Source: Escherichia coli
Lineage (GTDB): Bacteria > Pseudomonadota > Gammaproteobacteria > Enterobacterales > Enterobacteriaceae
Strand: one strand, 5' to 3'
NCBI RefSeq assembly: GCF_036507355.1
Contig: NZ_AP027877.1
DNA: 64,000 nt
Below, one piece after another: positions 14,711-54,822 of the stretch. The notes below the pieces were generated by a model. The model ran no database searches. It saw nothing but the letters and a program-made list of their open reading frames with translations, and was not told the DNA's origin. The position numbers and the translations under genes are program-made. Position 1 is the first letter of the stretch. Every line of letters begins with the position of its first letter.

Positions 14711-14786
14711 TGGCTCCTCTGACTGGACTCGAACCAGTGACATACGGATTAACAGTCCGCCGTTCTACCGACTGAACTACAGAGGA
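14711..14786 (-). tRNA. asnV: tRNA-Asn (GUU)
   Basis: 76-nt exact tRNA-Asn sequence (reverse complement), ends in CCA. Confidence 0.97.
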
Positions 14787-17113: not shown

Positions 17114-17135
17114 AAATCTGGCTCCTCTGACTGGA
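17114..17135. repeat. attL of asnU island: 22-nt direct repeat containing the tRNA-Asn 3' end
   Basis: aaatctggctcctctgactgga identical to 25212..25233; the tRNA body does not continue here. Confidence 0.8.
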
Positions 17136-17239
17136 TGCGGATTTTGTTGTAGTTTATTGAATTTAAATGATTTTTATGAGTAGAATAAAAATAAGGCCCT
17201 TAGAAAGGCCCCTCAGATATTTTTGCTTAAAAAGATGAT

Positions 17240-17500
17240 GTAAGTCACATTTTCAGGGGCTGTTACCTGGAGGTCTTAAAACCAACGAGAGGTCGTCATT
17301 CCTGGCGTATAGCGGGAATGCACCAGACATACAGAAACAGGGACTTGCACCAGCTTTAATATAGCTGGCTGCACCAGATCCTGGCGCTGCAAAAGTCCAT
17401 GATTGCGCCAGATTCTGAGGGATTACATCGATCTGAGCCAGAGTTGTCCCTTTGGGTTATAGCCTTTTCAGGTCAGGTGCTGTTACCCTTAGCTGGCCTT
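17240..17500 (+). ncRNA. Structured ORF-free leader upstream of the reverse transcriptase (candidate RT-associated ncRNA)
   Basis: Nested inverted repeats at 17341..17398, three copies of tgcaccag, direct repeat ttttcagg..gctgttacc at 17250 and 17465; no convincing ORF. Confidence 0.25.
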
Positions 17501-17793
17501 TACCCTTTTCCTTTTGACCGTCGGCTATGTGCCAAAAGCGGAATTCCAGTGGTTCTAGAAAAGCTATCATTCCATGGTCAAATTTTGTCGATCACTGCAC
17601 TTATGGAACCGCCATAACATAGGTAGATAGTTGAAGATAGCTAGAACGATGATAGATGATTTTCTTTACAGGGCTGACTTCTAGTCTATCTCATGTAATA
17701 CTCTATATTATATCTAATGTACAATATTAATAGCATTGTGATGTATCGACAACATGGATAGTCCACTGCTATTAAAACTATAATGACATTTAA

Positions 17794-18826
17794 TTGAGAA
17801 ATATAAAAATGACTCTATTAGAAAAATTGTTATCAAAAGGATACTTTCCTAAAGAAGCTCTCCCTCCTTTCTCTACGGAAAAATATGCACGCGCAATTGT
17901 GAATGGATACGATAATCTTCCCCAATTATTTAGAACCGGAAAATTCATAAGTAAGTGCGCTATTCATAATATTTCCAGAAAAGGTACATTACGGAGAAAA
18001 CTTGGAATACCTAATCCCATCAACTTCTTTAGATTAAGTGAGGCAATAACTGAAAATTGGTACGATATATATGAATGCGCAAGTGAATCAACAATATCGT
18101 TGACAACTCCAGACCCTGCCAGCAATGGCGGAAGAGCATTCAACCCAAAGCATTCATTAAATGAGCTTCCAGATATTCATGCAAAACTTAGAAGTAAACA
18201 TAAATATATACTTAAAACCGATATAAGCAGATTTTACCACTCAATATACACTCATAGTATTGCATGGACTTACCATACAAAAGATATTTCAAAAAGAAAC
18301 AGAAGCAATAGTTTATTTGGCAATGTATTAGACAAGCATTCGCAAGATTCGCAAGATGGACAAACAATAGGGCTCCCCATTGGTCCAGATACATCACTTA
18401 TCATAGCAGAGTCTCTGTTATCAAATATTGATCTTAAGCTTAGCGAAAAAGGCATTAGCAATGGCTTACGTTATATAGATGATTATTTCCTAGGGTTCAA
18501 TACAATTGGGGAAGCAGAATCTGCATTAACAATAATGCAGGAACTGTTAAACGAATATGAGTTAGCATTGAACCCCTTGAAAACAGAAATCATACAATTA
18601 CCAATTGAATTCGAGCCATTAGCAATTTCAGAACTAAGGGCATTTTCATTTAGAGATACAGCTGGCGGTCAGAAATCAGATTTAATGCATTATTTCAACA
18701 TAGCTTTCAAGGCAGCAAAAGATTTACCAACGGAACCAATATTAAAATATGCAGTATCAAGGACATTTGAAGTAAATGTTACTGCTGAAAACTATCCTGT
18801 TTTTGAAAATTTTATATTACAATGTG
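17794..18826 (+). pseudogene. Reverse transcriptase (stand-alone UG/DRT-like), 5' portion, interrupted by IS1
   Basis: RT motifs in order: RKLGIPNP (fingers), KTDISRFYHSI (motif A), GLPIGPDTSLIIAE (B'), LRYIDDYFLG (C, YxDD); TTG at 17794 or ATG at 17809; ORF runs into IS1. Confidence 0.8.
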
Positions 18827-18881
18827 GGTGATGCTGCCAACTTACTGATTTAGTGTATGATGGTGTTTTTGAGGTGCTCCA

Positions 18882-19157
18882 GTGGCTTCTGTTTCTATCA
18901 GCTGTCCCTCCTGTTCAGCTACTGACGGGGTGGTGCGTAACGGCAAAAGCACCGCCGGACATCAGCGCTATCTCTGCTCTCACTGTCGTAAAACATGGCA
19001 ACTGCAGTTCACTTACACCGCTTCTCAACCCGGTACGCACCAGAAAATCATTGATATGGCCATGAATGGCGTTGGATGCCGGGCAACAGCCCGCATTATG
19101 GGCGTTGGCCTCAACACGATTTTACGTCACTTAAAAAACTCAGGCCGCAGTCGGTAA
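18882..19157 (+). CDS. insA: IS1 protein InsA
   Basis: 91-aa ORF inside IS1. Confidence 0.95.
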
Positions 19158-19579
19158 CCTCGCGCATACAGCCGGGCAGTGACGTCATCGTCTGCGCGGA
19201 AATGGACGAACAGTGGGGCTATGTCGGGGCTAAATCGCGCCAGCGCTGGCTGTTTTACGCGTATGACAGGCTCCGGAAGACGGTTGTTGCGCACGTATTC
19301 GGTGAACGCACGATGGCGACGCTGGGGCGTCTTATGAGCCTGCTGTCACCCTTTGACGTGGTGATATGGATGACGGATGGCTGGCCGCTGTATGAATCCC
19401 GCCTGAAGGGAAAGCTGCACGTAATCAGCAAGCGATATACGCAGCGAATTGAGCGGCATAACCTGAATCTGAGGCAGCACCTGGCACGGCTGGGACGGAA
19501 GTCGCTGTCGTTCTCAAAATCGGTGGAGCTGCATGACAAAGTCATCGGGCATTATCTGAACATAAAACACTATCAATAA
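19076..19579 (+). CDS. insB: IS1 transposase InsB reading frame (made as InsAB' by frameshift)
   Basis: 167-aa ORF overlapping insA in the -1 frame. Confidence 0.9.
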
Positions 19580-19603
19580 GTTGGAGTCATTACCTACAAT
19601 GTG

Positions 19604-19881
19604 TTACAGCTGACAGTAGCACATTAAAATACACCGTCAATCAGCTTATAAAATACAAAAGAATAGGTTATGTTCAGAACGTTGAGAACATTTCGCATAT
19701 TTTGAGACAATTAGCAATAACTGAAAGCTCACTTGGCCATGGACACGAAGTTGCTTATTGCCTATGGCTTTATTTGATACTACGCATCCCCATACCAGAA
19801 GTCGTCGTTAAAAATGTGGTACCAATGAGAGATCCATTTGTTGCAATTTTGTTATGCGATTGCAGGCAAAAAACCTCATGA
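19604..19881 (+). pseudogene. Reverse transcriptase, 3' portion (C-terminal 92 codons)
   Basis: Reading frame of 17794..18826 resumes after IS1 minus one TSD copy and stays open to TGA at 19879..19881 (translated by hand). Confidence 0.7.
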
Positions 19882-20171
19882 CTTTTATACCTGATTTCTC
19901 AATTTATGAGCAAATGATGGTGATGGAAGAGCTATCGGGCGATATGTAGATTTTTGTCTATGAGATGCTTGCAAAAGGATGGTTTCAACCATTATCAAAC
20001 CAAAATCCAATTAGTCAAAATGAGTGTTATAGGTTCCTATTGAATTCAGGTGTTTTTTTCTATAATGAACATCTCTCATTAACTATTATGGCTGAAAGTC
20101 CAATTGATACAGATGGCTCGGCAGAGGGATTCAGTGGTTGAAATTAAAAATTATCTGTAAATAACTAACCC

Positions 20172-20201
20172 CCCTCCCTTTAATTTAATATTAAGGGAGG
20201 G
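20172..20201 (+). terminator. Stem-loop terminator downstream of RT region
   Basis: ccctccctt / aagggaggg inverted repeat with 12-nt loop, followed by ttgtgtttcg. Confidence 0.5.
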
Positions 20202-20449
20202 TTGTGTTTCGATATACATATATGGGCTTTGGTGAATAAATCAGATTTGGGATAAACATCCCTGGAGACAGTTGCAGCTGTCAGGTAATACGCACGCTTT
20301 TTGCTCAGAACCCCATCAATGCGCCGCCAGCACTTTTGCAGCCAGCCCAGTCGGGTTACGCCGTCTGGACTCCCAACTTTTGATGATATCGACGCTGGTT
20401 CCTTAGGGTTATTGCGTAACGATTTATTCTGCGCCAGTCATGAAAGCCG

Positions 20450-21409
20450 TTATTCCTTCTTCCATTCGTGCGCGTAAACCTGCTTCACCCAGCGACCGCG
20501 CCCGTCGCCATGCCCCAGGTCCATCGCCACCATTGCCAGCGCCTCTTTTTCGCTGAATCCCTGCGCCAGATACCGGCGAATATCGTCCTGCGCCAGATAC
20601 CGGCGAATATCGTCCTGCGCCCAGGCGTAACGCAGCGAATGTGGGGAGTATTTGCCCGTCAGCCCCATACGCAAAGTCTGGTTGCGCCAGTATTTCATTG
20701 CCTGTTTAAGGCTTGCCGCATCAATCAGCCTGCCGTTGCGCAGTCCTGCCACCACAATGGCATTATCGAGCGCCCGTTTAACTGCGCCAGCATTCTGAAT
20801 AAGGGTATCGCGGGGCCGCCCGCCTTTGGTGCCAAACACGATGGTTAGCCGGGTGGCTCCACGTTCAAGCGACTGCCGCCACGTCAGCAATGAACGTGAA
20901 CAGCGTACCGCCTCCTGTGAACGTAACCCCATCAGCCGCGCCAGCTCCAGCGCTGCCGCCAGTCCTGCGTCTTTCAGCCGGGCAGTCTCTGCCATCTGTT
21001 GATAATATTCCGGCGTGATGGCTTTCCGTGTACCATTGCGGGATACGCCAGCCAGCCCCAGCGATTTATTCGATATCCGCTCACTCTGCGCCAGTTTTTC
21101 GCGCCCGGCCTGCGTCAGTATTTTACGGATAGCCGCCGTTTCGTTATGCAGCGTCTGTTTCTGAATACCCTGCGCCAGTCGCATCTGAATATACGCCTCA
21201 ATATGCTTCGCCTTTAAATGATGGACATAGCGTATCTGAACGTTCAGTTCCGTCAGTCGTTCGCAGAACCGTTCTGCCATGGCGATACGGTCATGGACAG
21301 TCTTGTGCGCCCCGCCAGCCTGCCGCGCCAGGTTTTTCATCTCTCTTTCCAGCATACCCATTTTGCTTTTCCTCTTATCTCGCTCCTGATTTTCACAAAA
21401 CCACAACAC
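20450..21409 (-). CDS. Tyrosine recombinase-like protein (second recombinase of the island)
   Basis: 319 aa; box II-like HSLRYAWA and downstream LGHGDGRGRWVKQVYAH with candidate catalytic Tyr; contains in-frame 9-aa tandem duplication. Confidence 0.65.
   Translation of the reverse strand: MLWFCENQERDKRKSKMGMLEREMKNLARQAGGAHKTVHDRIAMAERFCERLTELNVQIRYVHHLKAKHIEAYIQMRLAQGIQKQTLHNETAAIRKILTQAGREKLAQSERISNKSLGLAGVSRNGTRKAITPEYYQQMAETARLKDAGLAAALELARLMGLRSQEAVRCSRSLLTWRQSLERGATRLTIVFGTKGGRPRDTLIQNAGAVKRALDNAIVVAGLRNGRLIDAASLKQAMKYWRNQTLRMGLTGKYSPHSLRYAWAQDDIRRYLAQDDIRRYLAQGFSEKEALAMVAMDLGHGDGRGRWVKQVYAHEWKKE
20565..20618. repeat. Perfect 27-bp tandem duplication inside the recombinase gene
   Basis: gccagataccggcgaatatcgtcctgc repeated twice, giving DDIRRYLAQ-DDIRRYLAQ. 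Confidence 0.9.
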
Positions 21410-22253
21410 ACAACGGATACAGCTTTCCCCGGCGCATAGGCCGATAGCCCCTGATTTTTGTCGGGGCTGCGAGCAGTACCTGAGCGCCGGGGCGACGGCT
21501 GTTGAGGTTTTGCGGGGTATCGGTTGTGCTCTCAGAGCAGCCGCCAGCGTGAGCTGGTCATCCCCCGGACCGTCCTGGTGGTCCCCCTCCGGTACTGGCT
21601 CATGTTCTCCTTTGGTGAATGAATGGTTGAAATAAATGCTGAAAAGCGACGTCAGAAGCTCGCCTGTGGCTGGAACAGTTGATATGACTGGTGCAGATGA
21701 AAATTTCTGCGGGCGTCAGTCTCTCACTCTGCGTGAGCGACTGACGCCCTGGTCTGGCGCAGGCGCTGAAAATTACACTCTGGTGCAGGATGGCGGCCAC
21801 GCGGCAGCAAATGCCTTCGGCAAATGCAGGCCGCAGCCCGTCATGTAAAGGGCGCTGGTAATCAGCAGGGTATAAGTGGGCCGGAGAAATTCCGGCAAAG
21901 AGAAACCGTGCAGCCGGTGAAGGCTGTTGCCGTTAAGCGATGACGATGAAGCCGTCCAGTGTATGTACTCTTAGCCTCAAACGCTTTCGCGTTCCGGTAT
22001 TGCGGAGGTCGTACCGGTAGCAGGGGGCTGGTCGTCCTGATAAATCAGGGGCTTCTTGCAGACCATGAAGCCAAAGGGGCTGTCAACCGACAGCTTATTG
22101 CAGGAGAGAGATTACACCGTAATTTCTGGCGCAGAAAGGGGAAACTCATTTTTCTGGAAATTGAGTTTCCCCCTGAATTTATGGAAAGTTTGTGAATGGA
22201 ACACTGCCGCGCTTCGCTTGTCGTCTCCCGGTGTGCGATTTGCTGTATCAGGA

Positions 22254-22502
22254 TCATCGCTTTCGCATGAACCTTTCCAGGCGATTACCTTTGCCGTCGA
22301 AGTATCTGGAAGGCCAGATGATCTCTGGAGCTATCTCCAGCGCATCTGCAATAAGTTTTTCTCCGCGCGGCCACGGGCGGGAAAGTGCATTTGCCAGTGT
22401 GGAAGAACTCAACCCTGCTTTACGCGATACCTCAGCCAGTGAGGTCCCTTTCTTTCTTAATCCGGCAATGATATCTGCCGGATGCCAGTCATCTTTATTC
22501 AT
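22254..22502 (-). CDS. Ner-like DNA-binding protein (Nlp/SfsB family)
   Basis: 82 aa; WHPADIIAGLRKKGTSLA...GLSSSTLANALSRPWP closely resembles Nlp/Ner. Confidence 0.8.
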   Translation of the reverse strand: MNKDDWHPADIIAGLRKKGTSLAEVSRKAGLSSSTLANALSRPWPRGEKLIADALEIAPEIIWPSRYFDGKGNRLERFMRKR

Positions 22503-22614
22503 TGTTTTCCCCTGTTTCCAAATCTGGTTTTTCTGACTTTAGGAACTCTAAAGGCAATGAATCTTAAGGAATGCTAAAGATGGTGTCAATGTAACTATTA
22601 ACCAAACAGGTTAT

Positions 22615-22914
22615 ATGATCCCTGAACGACTCAAGGCAGCGAGGTTGCGGGCTAATCTCACCCAGGAACAACTGGGCGTTCGTGCAGGCATCGCCGAAGA
22701 TACGGCCTGCTCCCGGCTTTCTCAGTACGAAAGTGGAACACACAAGCCCACATTCAAAATGGTTTGTGCCTTTGCTCGTGTTTTGCATGTTCCTGAATGT
22801 TACTTCTATGCACAGGAAGACACTTTCGCCGAAGCGATTTTAAGGCTGTATGACGGTGAAACTGTGCAGTGGAATATAAAAACAGAGATCGTTCATCATA
22901 CTGAACGGGTATAA
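22615..22914 (+). CDS. XRE-family HTH regulator (copy 1)
   Basis: 99 aa; HTH LTQEQLGVRAGI; paralogue of 23014..23283. Confidence 0.7.
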   Translation: MIPERLKAARLRANLTQEQLGVRAGIAEDTACSRLSQYESGTHKPTFKMVCAFARVLHVPECYFYAQEDTFAEAILRLYDGETVQWNIKTEIVHHTERV

Positions 22915-23013
22915 ACCTCTTGCCTCATCCATCCTCTTTATGAACTCTAAAGAAAAATGCTCTTGAGGAATGCTAAAGATTACCGTCATAAATTCAAACT
23001 GATGGTAATTTCA

Positions 23014-23283
23014 ATGATCCCCAAACGCTTAAAAGAAGCCAGATTGCGGGCTAAACTCACTCAGGAAAAATTGGGGGTACTGGCGGGTATTGAAGAAGCC
23101 ACGGCTTATTCGCGTCTGTCACATTACGAGAGTGGTACGCATAAACCAACTTTTGATCTCGTTTGTGAGTTTGCCCGAGTACTCAATGTACCAGAATGCT
23201 ATTTCTATACGGTGGATGATGATTTCGCGCAGGCGGTGTTGGATCTTCATGCCAGGTGGACAAAGAGAACTACGGAAAGATAG
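23014..23283 (+). CDS. XRE-family HTH regulator (copy 2)
   Basis: 89 aa from MIPKRLKEARL; about 70 percent identical to copy 1; similar upstream sequence. Confidence 0.7.
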   Translation: MIPKRLKEARLRAKLTQEKLGVLAGIEEATAYSRLSHYESGTHKPTFDLVCEFARVLNVPECYFYTVDDDFAQAVLDLHARWTKRTTER

Positions 23284-23299
23284 ATCGCAGAAAATAAAA

Positions 23300-23400
23300 A
23301 ACCCCGCTGGTGAGGCAGGGTTCTTTATTTTTCGTTCTCAGACTGCTTATAGCGACCTGAGCAACGTTGCGCGACAATACAATCCTAGCAGAATAAGTTT
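23300..23400 (-). ncRNA. Candidate antisense sRNA antitoxin (Orz-like) with 20-nt match to toxin 5' UTR
   Basis: gacaatacaatcctagcaga (23373..23392) repeats 19/20 at 23545..23564 in the toxin leader; stem-loop with flanking T-run near 23290..23330 could terminate a minus-strand transcript. Confidence 0.3.
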
Positions 23401-23634
23401 AACCCGCTTTGTTTCCCGTTGCAAACAAACGCTCCCGGTCTTTATAATGCCAGACGCTGGGTTTATCACGTTTCAGGCCAGACCGATTTCAAGCCCTGAC
23501 TGCCGGACGGGTGGTGCCGCAGGCAGTGCCCCGGTCTGGAGCGTGATAATACAATCCTAGCAGATGTGATCCTGCGCCGACAGGCAATGTAAGGGTAAGG
23601 TGCAGGCGTTGCGCTCCTTTCATAAGGAGAGCGG

Positions 23635-23724
23635 ATGGACATGTTGACGCGAAAGCTGATCGTGCTCATCGCCGTACTGGAGCTTTTGCTGGCTCTGCTG
23701 CGGTTGATTGATCTGTTGAAATAA
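23635..23724 (+). CDS. ShoB/ZorO-like type I toxin, 29-aa hydrophobic peptide
   Basis: MDMLTRKLIVLIAVLELLLALLRLIDLLK; SD aaggag 7 nt upstream; single TM helix; followed by terminator. Confidence 0.6.
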   Translation: MDMLTRKLIVLIAVLELLLALLRLIDLLK

Positions 23725-23744
23725 TTCTCAGATTGAAACGCACC

Positions 23745-23770
23745 AAAGGGGAAACACCCGTTTCCCCTTT
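23745..23770 (+). terminator. Rho-independent terminator after toxin ORF
   Basis: ggggaaac-accc-gtttcccc stem-loop followed by ttt. Confidence 0.6.
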
Positions 23771-23788
23771 AATAAATACGCTGCTTTG

Positions 23789-25066
23789 TTACGACGCCTG
23801 TTTCAGGCGGCGGGCATACTGGTAAGCTGAAACATACCCGTCACTGTTTGCATCAAGATAATCTGACCACCATTGCATCATCTCGATCCGCTCTTCCAGA
23901 TATTCAGCCTTGTGAATATACGCAGCGCGGACGCTGTTTCTTTCCTGGTGACTCATTTGTTTTTCAATCGCTTCTTTGCTCCACAGCCCCGATTCACTCA
24001 ACGCACTACATGCCATCGCCCGGAAGCCATGCCCGCAGACGTCTTTTTTGGTGTCATAGCCCATCACCCGCAGCGCTTTATTCACGGTGTTGTCGCTCAT
24101 GCACTTATCCTGGTCGTACTCGCCGGGAAAGATAAAGGCCAGATGACCGGAGAGGGCTTCGATCTGTTTCAGGATCGCAATTGCCTGATCCGACAGCGGC
24201 ACGATATGTTGAATTTTCATTTTCGACCCCCGGTAAGAGAAGCGCACATTTTCGATCTGCTCGCGTTCTTCCGCGATCACCCACAGCTTTTGCTGCCAGT
24301 CGATTTCACTCCAGCGAGCAAAGCGTAGCTCGCTGGAGCGCACAAAAAATATCAGTGACAACTTAAGGGCGTATTTCGTCAGCAGCCTGCCGCAGTAGTT
24401 ATCCGTACGGGTTAAAAGCTCTGGCAGCCTGTCCAGCGACAGGGCCGGGTAATGATTAGTCTCTGGCGCAGCAAATTCACCATCCAGATACAGCGCGGGG
24501 TTCGCTTTGAGCAACTGCTTTTTCATCGCGTAGTGCATGATGTCGGTGACATAGTTTTTCAGCCGGGCGGTGATCTCCAGAAAGCCTTTGCTCTCCACCT
24601 TACGCAGCGTGACCAGCAAATCCTCTGTTTCGATCTCCCCGATAAGGCGATCCCCGATATCCGGGAAAACATACATTTCCAGTCTGCGCATAACCGTTTT
24701 CGCGTAATGTTCAGACCAGCGTTTATGCTCGCCATGCCAGTTAGTGGCGACCTGGCTGAACGTCTGTCCGTTTTTCTTCTTCTGTTTCTCCGTCTGCTTC
24801 ACCGCAGCAGGATCGACGCCTGCATGAATGTTATTGCGTGCCGCTTCCCGTAAACGGCGAGCCTGCAACAGCGAGATCCCCGGGTAGGGGCCAAAGGCCA
24901 GCTTTTTCTCTTTCCCGTCGATACGGTACTTCATGTACCAGAGTTTTGAGCCATTAGGTTTGATCAACAGGTACAGTCCGGAACTGTCTGTCATTTTGAA
25001 AGGTTTGTCGGAGGGTTTGATCTTGCGAATCGTGGTATCTGTTAATGCCATAGCGGGGGGCTCCAT
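23789..25066 (-). CDS. P4-type tyrosine integrase
   Basis: 425 aa (or start at MALTDTTIRK, 25051); arm-binding N-terminus and C-terminal catalytic domain (HGFRAMA); adjacent to tRNA-Asn. Confidence 0.9.
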   Translation of the reverse strand: MEPPAMALTDTTIRKIKPSDKPFKMTDSSGLYLLIKPNGSKLWYMKYRIDGKEKKLAFGPYPGISLLQARRLREAARNNIHAGVDPAAVKQTEKQKKKNGQTFSQVATNWHGEHKRWSEHYAKTVMRRLEMYVFPDIGDRLIGEIETEDLLVTLRKVESKGFLEITARLKNYVTDIMHYAMKKQLLKANPALYLDGEFAAPETNHYPALSLDRLPELLTRTDNYCGRLLTKYALKLSLIFFVRSSELRFARWSEIDWQQKLWVIAEEREQIENVRFSYRGSKMKIQHIVPLSDQAIAILKQIEALSGHLAFIFPGEYDQDKCMSDNTVNKALRVMGYDTKKDVCGHGFRAMACSALSESGLWSKEAIEKQMSHQERNSVRAAYIHKAEYLEERIEMMQWWSDYLDANSDGYVSAYQYARRLKQAS

Positions 25067-25211
25067 TTGCTCACCGAACCGTGAGGCCCCCGATTAAGCC
25101 CACAAAAACTATGGATGTCAAGAAACCCGGTAGCCTCTTGTGAGACAACCGGGTAAAGATAAGTTCTTGTTTTTTAACTATCTCGAGACTCATAGAGATG
25201 TCTCAAAACTA

Positions 25212-25233
25212 AAATCTGGCTCCTCTGACTGGA
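25212..25233. repeat. attR of asnU island (overlaps 3' end of intact tRNA-Asn)
   Basis: 22-nt perfect match to 17114..17135. Confidence 0.8.
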
Positions 25234-25292
25234 CTCGAACCAGTGACATACGGATTAACAGTCCGCCGTTCTACCGACTGAACTACAGAGGA
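25217..25292 (-). tRNA. asnU: tRNA-Asn (GUU)
   Basis: 76-nt exact tRNA-Asn sequence; position between cbl and yeeO. Confidence 0.97.
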
Positions 25293-45996: not shown

Positions 45997-46315
45997 TATG
46001 TATTCCCTTGTGATTATAATCTTCATGAATATATCAATAAGTGCCGTTATCCAAAAAAAAGCACATTTGGATACTATTCTATGAAGTTCATTTTATTTTA
46101 AAGATTACATGTAACAAATGTATTTAAAAGACTTCAAAATGTTTCTAATCTATTTAATATGATTCATAATTATGAATTCTAAATATAAATATTCATGAAA
46201 ATTATAAGTATATATCAATATGTTATGAGTTGAGCGGAAAGATAGGGAGTATCAATGATTGTTACGCCAAACACCTGGTGTGATCACGCGCACATTAATG
46301 AAGGCATAAAAAAAA

Positions 46316-46332
46316 GCCGGCATCATGCCGGC
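46316..46332 (-). terminator. Stem-loop terminator, possible 3' end of a small RNA between yedS and yedR
   Basis: gccggcatcatgccggc palindrome flanked by A-run (plus strand) and T-run (minus strand). Confidence 0.45.
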
Positions 46333-46562
46333 CCAAAAAATATAAACAAGACGATAAAAGGCTAATAACGGAAGCATCATGACACAGAATAATAAAAAGG
46401 TATAATTGTAATCAGTGCTAATATATTGATTGAATGAATTAATAAAGCCGATATCAAAGATAAATAAAATCGCTCAAAACGATTTTTCCTGTATTCACTG
46501 CCGTTGCGCAAAAATTATCTATTTGTTCAAAAAATGAGTGAGTCTTGACTGGCTCATTCAAT

Positions 46563-54734: not shown

Positions 54735-54822
54735 AACACATCAGATTTCCTGGTGTAACGAATTTTTTAAGTGCTTCTTGCTTAAGCAAGTTTCATCCCG
54801 ACCCCCTCAGGGTCGGGATTTT
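54735..54822 (+). ncRNA. dsrA: DsrA small regulatory RNA
   Basis: AACACATCAGATTTCCTGGTGTAACGAATTTTTTAAGTGCTTCTTGCTTAAGCAAGTTTCATCCCGACCCCCTCAGGGTCGGGATTT matches DsrA including terminator hairpin. Confidence 0.9.

Follow-up and report, generated by a model that had tools for sequence, protein, structure and literature searches.

Features of the locus and the predicted toxin peptide

Within a 64,000-nt stretch of Escherichia coli DNA (NCBI RefSeq assembly GCF_036507355.1, contig NZ_AP027877.1; the whole stretch is called the window hereafter), we analysed a compact locus in which a small putative toxin gene on the plus strand lies next to a predicted divergent small RNA (sRNA) gene on the minus strand. 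Taken together, the features at 23296..23770 very probably make up a complete type I toxin-antitoxin module of the zor-orz family, present here as an unannotated and divergent copy. This reading rests on homology, collinearity, pairing potential, covariation and context, from which we infer transcription starts, processing, toxicity, repression and biological role. The RefSeq annotation, produced by the Prokaryotic Genome Annotation Pipeline (PGAP), holds no feature at the toxin and sRNA genes, and an NCBIfam scan of the toxin peptide matched no family. The coordinates of the locus and of its neighbours are collected in Table 1, in which the 29-codon open reading frame (ORF), its Shine-Dalgarno (SD) sequence, the terminator that follows it and a direct repeat with 19/20 identical positions all stand where an initial annotation of this DNA had placed them.

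Table 1. Features of the candidate zor-orz module and of the island genes around it; positions are counted from the first nucleotide of the window, HTH stands for helix-turn-helix, RBS for ribosome-binding site and UTR for untranslated region
Feature	Position	Strand	Remarks
Toxin ORF	23635..23724	+	29 codons, encodes MDMLTRKLIVLIAVLELLLALLRLIDLLK
SD AAGGAG	23624..23629	+	ends 5 nt 5' of the ATG
Predicted RBS hairpin hiding the SD	23611..23632	+	fold of 23605..23640, -12.7 kcal/mol; pairs invariant in all loci
Toxin mRNA terminator hairpin	23745..23770	+	11-bp G+C-rich stem, -16.4 kcal/mol, z = -6.0
Predicted toxin 5' UTR, 179 nt	23456..23634	+	~79% identical to the canonical zorO UTR from 23481 onward
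5' leader segment, +1..+24	23456..23479	+	predicted to pair with +78..+106, hiding the sRNA target and standby region
Predicted sRNA target site in leader, +86..+106	23541..23561	+	repeat copy 2
Palindromic -35 hexamer TTGCAA	23419..23424	both	common to the divergent zor and orz promoters
zor -10 hexamer TATAAT	23443..23448	+	18-bp spacer from TTGCAA; promoter scan 10/12
Predicted zor transcription start	G at 23456	+	promoter geometry
Predicted orz -10 hexamer TAAACT	23396..23401	-	17 bp from the common -35; aligns with the canonical orz -10
Predicted Orz-like antitoxin sRNA	23389 to 23296	-	~94 nt; Rfam match and promoter geometry
sRNA recognition region, +1..+21	23369..23389	-	GCUAGGAUUGUAUUGUCGCGC; repeat copy 1
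Drt4/Drt6-like defence reverse transcriptase	17809..19881		PADLOC E 2.4e-148
Integrase-domain gene	20450..21409		island content
EFASI RNA (RF02957)	21470..21603	-	112 bits vs threshold 51; just upstream of the integrase-domain gene
Two tandem paralogous XRE/RstR-like HTH genes	22615..22914, 22957..23283	+	directly upstream of the orz terminator

Aligned by BLASTP with ZorO of E. coli O157:H7, the window peptide gave 25/29 identical residues (86%) and 27/29 positives, the substitutions from ZorO to the window being T3M, Q6R, T9I and V19L. The charged residues D2, K7, E16, R23, D26 and K29 are all kept, and these are the ZorO charged residues that were mutated or analysed by Bogati et al. (PMC9860968). 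As canonical reference we used the locus of O157:H7 strain 8368, situated between yehL and yehK, which encodes ZorO (MDTLTQKLTVLIAVLELLVALLRLIDLLK) and ZorP (MDSLTQ...). Here, the window ORF departs from O157 zorO by 12 synonymous nucleotide differences and by 4 changed codons, and the UniRef name attached to the exact window peptide is 'Small toxic protein ZorP'. Only two alleles of the locus in its island setting (described below) were found in the data examined, namely that of the window, shared with strain G4/9, and a D7 type; between them, the ORF carries 3 synonymous and 0 non-synonymous changes, and the peptide is the same.

In a multiple alignment, the window locus (~500 bp) proved collinear from end to end with both zorO-orzO and zorP-orzP of O157. 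The parts held in common are the sRNA terminator and body, the divergent promoters, the leader, the block TGTAAGGGTAAGGTGC, the anti-SD/SD hairpin, the ORF and the mRNA terminator, whose hairpin is likewise kept in the canonical zor loci. The likeness to ZorO proposed in the initial annotation is thus borne out by the peptide identity as well as by the DNA, but the likeness to ShoB, proposed alongside it, is confined to architecture. A ShoB-OhsC family locus would indeed have the same layout, in which the sRNA is likewise divergent and its pairing site lies far upstream within a long leader, and a weak match to the ohsC model of Rfam was obtained (32.1 bits, E 0.066). However, this match falls below the threshold of 50, covers just the terminator-like 3' part of the sRNA and overlaps the better match to OrzO-P given below, BLASTP returned no alignment with ShoB and the DNA is collinear with zor-orz, so that assignment to the ShoB-OhsC family is hardly credible. 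As an observation on the terminators, the Orz terminator loop CCUCACCAG (window 23296..23330, minus strand) resembles the Rfam-consensus OhsC terminator loop CCUUACCAG. This likeness accounts for the sub-threshold ohsC match, and it might hint at a common ancestry of the orz and ohsC sRNAs.

Predicted divergent promoters, antitoxin sRNA and leader pairing

A divergent sRNA on the minus strand had been predicted upstream of the toxin gene, and at this place the Rfam model OrzO-P (RF02083) matches 23296..23371 on that strand over its full length (47.8 bits, E 2e-5); the two O157 copies score 99.9 and 88.8 bits with the same model. The fold of the predicted sRNA (-29.9 kcal/mol, z = -2.5) has a largely unpaired 5' recognition region and two hairpins, one central and one of 12 bp that forms the terminator and is followed by a U6 run; the terminator was found both by the terminator scan and by folding. 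With 94 nt against 81-83 nt, the predicted sRNA exceeds OrzO and OrzP by 11-13 nt, owing to 11 nt inserted beside what is left of the ancestral recognition segment, CAACGUUGC. The orz terminator also looks bidirectional, and may end the transcript of the upstream HTH genes as well.

Both promoters are built on the same -35 hexamer. TTGCAA is invariant in every aligned locus, within the invariant block CCGTTGCAA, and it is listed as the -35 element of both zor and orz in Table 3 of an earlier study (PMC11264685). Since one TTGCAA is placed as the -35 of both promoters, the two may compete for RNA polymerase. For the transcription starts, we applied the rule that in the canonical locus the G at +1 comes 6-7 nt after each -10. 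On O157 zorO, this rule returns the published UTR of 174 nt (PMC5397157) as well as the canonical 5' end of OrzO, which starts with an 18-nt stretch complementary to the zorO leader (PMC3919570), and the reproduction of both validates the inference of start sites. In the window, promoter geometry accordingly predicts starts at 23456 (plus strand) and 23389 (minus strand), giving a predicted toxin mRNA of ~317 nt from ~23456 with a 179-nt leader.

The direct repeat would link the two predicted transcripts. Its copies at 23373..23392 (GACAATACAATCCTAGCAGA) and 23545..23564 (GATAATACAATCCTAGCAGA), identical at 19 of 20 positions, hold a 17-nt exact match, whereas 300 dinucleotide shuffles of 23290..23790 gave no exact direct repeat longer than 11 nt. 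Leftwards, the repeat lengthens to 24 nt (23369..23392 and 23541..23564) with two differences, and as both are C in the sRNA-gene copy against T in the leader copy, they would become G:U wobbles in the sRNA:mRNA duplex. With the sRNA starting at 23389, the repeat bases 23390..23392 would lie upstream of the transcript. The predicted duplex between the sRNA 5' end and mRNA +86..+106 comprises 21 bp, of which 19 are Watson-Crick and 2 are G:U. Its counterpart in the D7-type allele, at leader +86..+105, is Watson-Crick at 20/20 positions. In the O157 copies, the duplex falls at leader +83..+102 in a 20-nt register, with 1 mismatch in the ZorP type and with 1 G:U plus 1 mismatch in the ZorO type, the zorO pair of strain 8368 thus also holding one G:U. 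Moreover, in 9/9 distinct loci compared, sRNA +1 is where the best duplex starts, and its end falls at an equivalent position of the leader; the window target, 74-94 nt 5' of the ATG, sits much as the canonical target does at 72-92 nt (Fozo 2010, PMC2887945). The repeat is therefore a candidate sRNA/5'-UTR pairing module, as the initial annotation had supposed.

That annotation had also named beforehand a check, namely whether the repeat is conserved with compensatory changes in related loci, and such changes were found. Among four recognition classes, the pair type varies at 16/18 of the first duplex positions, and all 18 stay paired across the classes, bar an A/G mismatch at position 7 in the ZorP-type copies. 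In the multiple alignment, the two island alleles are further set apart by an indel of 1 nt and by a C/T change, each mirrored in both copies of the repeat. The recognition sequence GCUAGGAUUGUAUUGUCGCGC is itself unrelated to those of OrzO and OrzP, which means that the island pair should be insulated from the canonical ones. On the island leaders, O157 OrzO and OrzP make no more than 7 contiguous pairs, with G:U counted, and on the O157 leaders the island sRNAs make no more than 11. Between the island alleles there is partial overlap, the window sRNA making 14 pairs on the D7 leader.

We also considered whether the repeat could have arisen as a structural by-product, for instance as the scar of a duplication or insertion, or could be a pair of binding sites for an HTH regulator, with no pairing between RNAs. 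Direct repeats beside integrase genes are often recombination or regulator sites, and three HTH genes lie directly upstream. Against a by-product, one copy stands at the predicted 5' end of the sRNA and the other at the equivalent of the experimentally defined OrzO/zorO site (PMC3919570), and each recognition class has an altogether different repeat sequence whose two copies still match. In addition, related islands of Salmonella, E. coli and E. marmotae keep the HTH and integrase genes without the 500-bp module or the repeat. We thus consider a by-product very improbable and retain the repeat as the putative pairing module of a zor-orz pair.

The leader appears to be folded as in the canonical mRNAs. 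Minimum free energy folding of the full-length leaders joins the first ~24 nt to +78..+106 in the window as well as in the D7 allele and in both O157 copies, and this helix is gone from the folds of RNAs without the first 28 nt. The region +78..+106 corresponds to the one published as 'exposed after processing', and it includes the sRNA target. RNAalifold on eight distinct leaders recovered the 5'/standby helix together with the SD hairpin, with six pairs showing compensatory double changes, those of the 5'/standby helix at columns 2:105, 4:103, 14:90, 20:82 and 23:79. The two leader Ts that would form G:U pairs with the sRNA face As in the window's own 5' leader (UUAUCACG with CGUGAUAA), and the corresponding bases of the D7 allele are G and U, facing CGCGACAA. 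As the leader bases at the G:U positions are matched within their own 5' leader, the target appears to co-evolve with two partners at once. The SD would be hidden in its hairpin, consistent with the occlusion reported for the zorO RBS (PMC5397157). The AU-rich processing site of zorO, ACCAA/UUUUAAG, is kept in the window as ACCGA/UUUCAAG, and the alignment predicts a processed 5' end near 23487.

From these features, and by homology with zorO/OrzO, we infer the following course of events. The full-length toxin mRNA would be poorly translated, its RBS locked in a hairpin and its first ~24 nt paired with +78..+106, and 5' processing near ACCGA/UUUCAAG would free the +78..+106 standby region and so allow toxin translation. 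From the weaker minus-strand promoter on the common -35, the Orz-like sRNA of ~94 nt would be made, and its first 21 nt would bind the 3' part of the standby region (+86..+106), blocking standby loading and leading to RNase III cleavage, which is the route described for OrzO and zorO (PMC3919570, PMC5397157). The toxin would insert in the inner membrane, followed by depolarisation and ATP depletion, as known for ZorO (PMC9860968).

Island setting, distribution and possible decay

The module is carried by an island of ~8.1 kb (17119..25292) at tRNA-Asn (asnU), between cbl and yeeO, whose bounds are marked by a 17-nt direct repeat, TCCAGTCAGAGGAGCCA, at 17119..17135 and at the tRNA-Asn 3' end (25217..25292). 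Counting this one, tRNA-Asn occurs four times in the window, the 3' ends being at 14711, 25217, 27116 and 35428. Within the island, the orz-zor module occupies the space between an XRE-type HTH gene, which is the last of the regulators, and a P4-type integrase gene; a Ner/SfsB-like HTH gene completes the set besides the genes of Table 1. For the EFASI RNA motif found there, we know of no function. Elsewhere in the window, Rfam reports the chromosomal sRNA genes rseX (46309..46398, minus strand) and dsrA (54735..54821, plus strand) at its gathering threshold.

The adjacent HTH protein has widely distributed homologues in Enterobacterales, and related islands share a backbone made up of the integrase-domain gene, the Ner-like HTH gene, the two XRE HTH genes and the P4-type integrase gene, with different cargo. 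Where the integrase gene follows the HTH gene, as in Salmonella, in E. coli, in E. marmotae and at one E. albertii place, the two are only ~80 bp apart, measured between stop codons in the Salmonella, E. coli and E. marmotae islands examined. No zor-like ORF or motif was found near homologues of the adjacent HTH gene in any of these species, nor in Klebsiella or Yersinia. These short gaps, free of zor-like sequence, indicate that the 500-bp module is an insertion specific to a minority of the islands.

Among 5426 complete E. coli genomes, 25 contain the island locus. The 501-bp query from the window is 100% identical to strain G4/9, and the type shared by the two occurs in 1/5426; the D7 type accounts for 24/5426, and also for three metagenome contigs and one contig of a metagenome-assembled genome (MAG) binned as Bacillota. 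A 26th megablast match, in strain A30, spans merely 38 nt of the orz terminator and was not counted as a locus. By sensitive blastn, the leader, ORF and terminator part is present at ~79% identity in 3399/5426 of the same genomes. Here, the D7-type genomes have three zor-like places each (one holds two), which are presumably the island copy plus the canonical yehI-yehL copies, and G4/9 has the island copy only. Such co-residence is consistent with the need for an orthogonal recognition sequence.

Further afield, a scan of genome contigs with TGTAAGGGTAAGGTGCNGG matched 8 contigs, including three Escherichia genomes with a canonical-type zor; four of the eight have no zor-like ORF and look like chance matches. 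No genus outside Escherichia showed a zor-like locus in this contig scan, leaving aside JAEWTL010000060.1, a 6-kb contig of a 'Bacillota bacterium' MAG that is identical to the D7-type island across the ~530-bp zor-orz locus and is most likely a mis-binned Enterobacteriaceae contig. The metagenome scan with an island-specific 26-mer gave three contigs, all identical to the D7 allele, and no further allele. No match was returned by tblastn of the peptide against plasmids and phages, where the Leu-rich peptide was almost certainly masked by the low-complexity filter, and a DNA search of the plasmid collection found canonical zor in 8 records, several of them chromosome-sized.

Several observations weigh against the view that 23296..23770 is a complete zor-orz module. 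The score of the sRNA with the OrzO-P model stays under the gathering threshold of 60, so that nothing is reported at threshold. Its -10 hexamer, TAAACT in the window and TACACT in the D7 type, deviates from the TATAAT found in about 99% of orz genes (PMC11264685); the window hexamer scores 8/12 against the consensus, below the reporting level of the promoter scan, and with a -10 this weak the antitoxin might be produced in small amounts or under a different regulation. In the D7 allele, GGGG takes the place of the GGAG motif, which is needed for full zorO toxicity (PMC11264685). As for pairing, 15 contiguous pairs, or 17 with one mismatch, suffice for OrzO (Wen 2014, PMC3919570), and the window sRNA makes 14 contiguous Watson-Crick pairs from its predicted +1, flanked by G:U-bridged extensions. 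This number rises to 15-17 if transcription starts 1-3 nt upstream (17 if at 23392), and in that case, or if G:U pairs count, the window allele may well reach the OrzO threshold. With only two island alleles, the covariation within the island rests on few events, and gene conversion between the repeat copies could also be its source. The island is itself decaying: in G4/9 the Drt4/Drt6-like reverse transcriptase is split into ORFs of 431 aa and 87 aa, and in the window a 768-bp insertion (18827..19594) of the size of the insertion sequence IS1 breaks it up further. G4/9 lacks this insertion, so that the strain of the window is a different one. The module could therefore be a passenger relic.

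Taken to its end, such a relic would be a decaying, non-functional zor-orz pair carried into the island, its sRNA poorly expressed or silent and its toxin not made. The degenerate orz -10, the low Rfam score, the pseudogenised cargo and the rarity of the locus (25 of the 5426 genomes) all fit with this. The locus itself, however, has kept intact its ORF with SD and RBS hairpin, its zor promoter, its pairing module and both terminators, the ORF changes between the two alleles are synonymous only, and complementarity has been kept through changes on both sides. Moreover, an intact toxin gene beside a silent antitoxin would be counter-selected. Decay to a relic thus seems unlikely to us, and we prefer to see in the locus a complete zor-orz module.

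Significance and comparison with known systems

The recognition class, the mobile tRNA-Asn island context and the sub-threshold sRNA are new here, and in other respects the locus is an expected member of a well-studied family. The zor-orz family has been known since 2010, with loci in O157:H7 and in most other E. coli and Shigella, and every copy described so far (ZorO, ZorP and ZorQ) lies in the yehI-yehL region (PMC2887945, PMC11264685). The zor-orz literature that we searched, including part of the supplement of PMC11264685, makes no mention of the variant peptide, of the strains or of an island-borne copy. A bolder interpretation would see here the first mobile zor-orz lineage, captured by or originated on a tRNA-Asn defence island, with an orthogonal recognition sequence, and acting either as an island-stabilising (post-segregational) module or as a phage-triggered abortive-infection module beside the Drt4-like reverse transcriptase; we put this forward tentatively, as the whole of it is rather doubtful. 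In particular, a part for the module as stabiliser of the island is plausible but conjectural.

Whichever role it has, the function of zor-orz is debated, and an intact island copy offers a natural case for a role in mobile-element stabilisation or defence. It also amounts to a natural experiment in specificity, in that the sRNA 5' end, the leader target and the mRNA 5' end have changed together while the architecture is kept. Furthermore, as the locus was missed both by PGAP and at the Rfam threshold, the OrzO-P model and the annotation of small ORFs could be broadened.

Compared with zorO/orzO, zorP/orzP and zorQ/orzQ, the window locus likewise has a 29-aa toxin with all charged residues kept, promoters that share TTGCAA, a leader of ~175 nt, an RBS predicted to be occluded and the same terminator hairpins. 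Like the canonical pairs, it is predicted to form a helix between the mRNA 5' end and the standby region, and the very 5' end of its sRNA is predicted to pair ~75-95 nt upstream of the ATG. Unlike them, it lies not in the yehI-yehL intergenic region but in a tRNA-Asn island, adjoining an integrase gene, and it differs in having GCUAGGAUUGUAUUGUCGCGC rather than GUUGGUACGAAAUGUUGC as recognition sequence, a longer sRNA, a TAAACT -10 and an Rfam score below threshold. Wider likenesses concern layout. In shoB-ohsC, tisB-istR-1 and dinQ-agrB, a divergent, non-overlapping sRNA also pairs far upstream of the RBS, and their toxin mRNAs are activated by 5' processing, with a standby-site logic (PMC5397157), but they have no peptide or DNA homology to the window locus. 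Lastly, hok-sok on plasmids and other mobile elements likewise couples a small membrane toxin with an antisense RNA and can serve to stabilise its carrier, though with an overlapping cis-antisense RNA, 3'-end processing and an unrelated peptide family, in contrast to the module described here.

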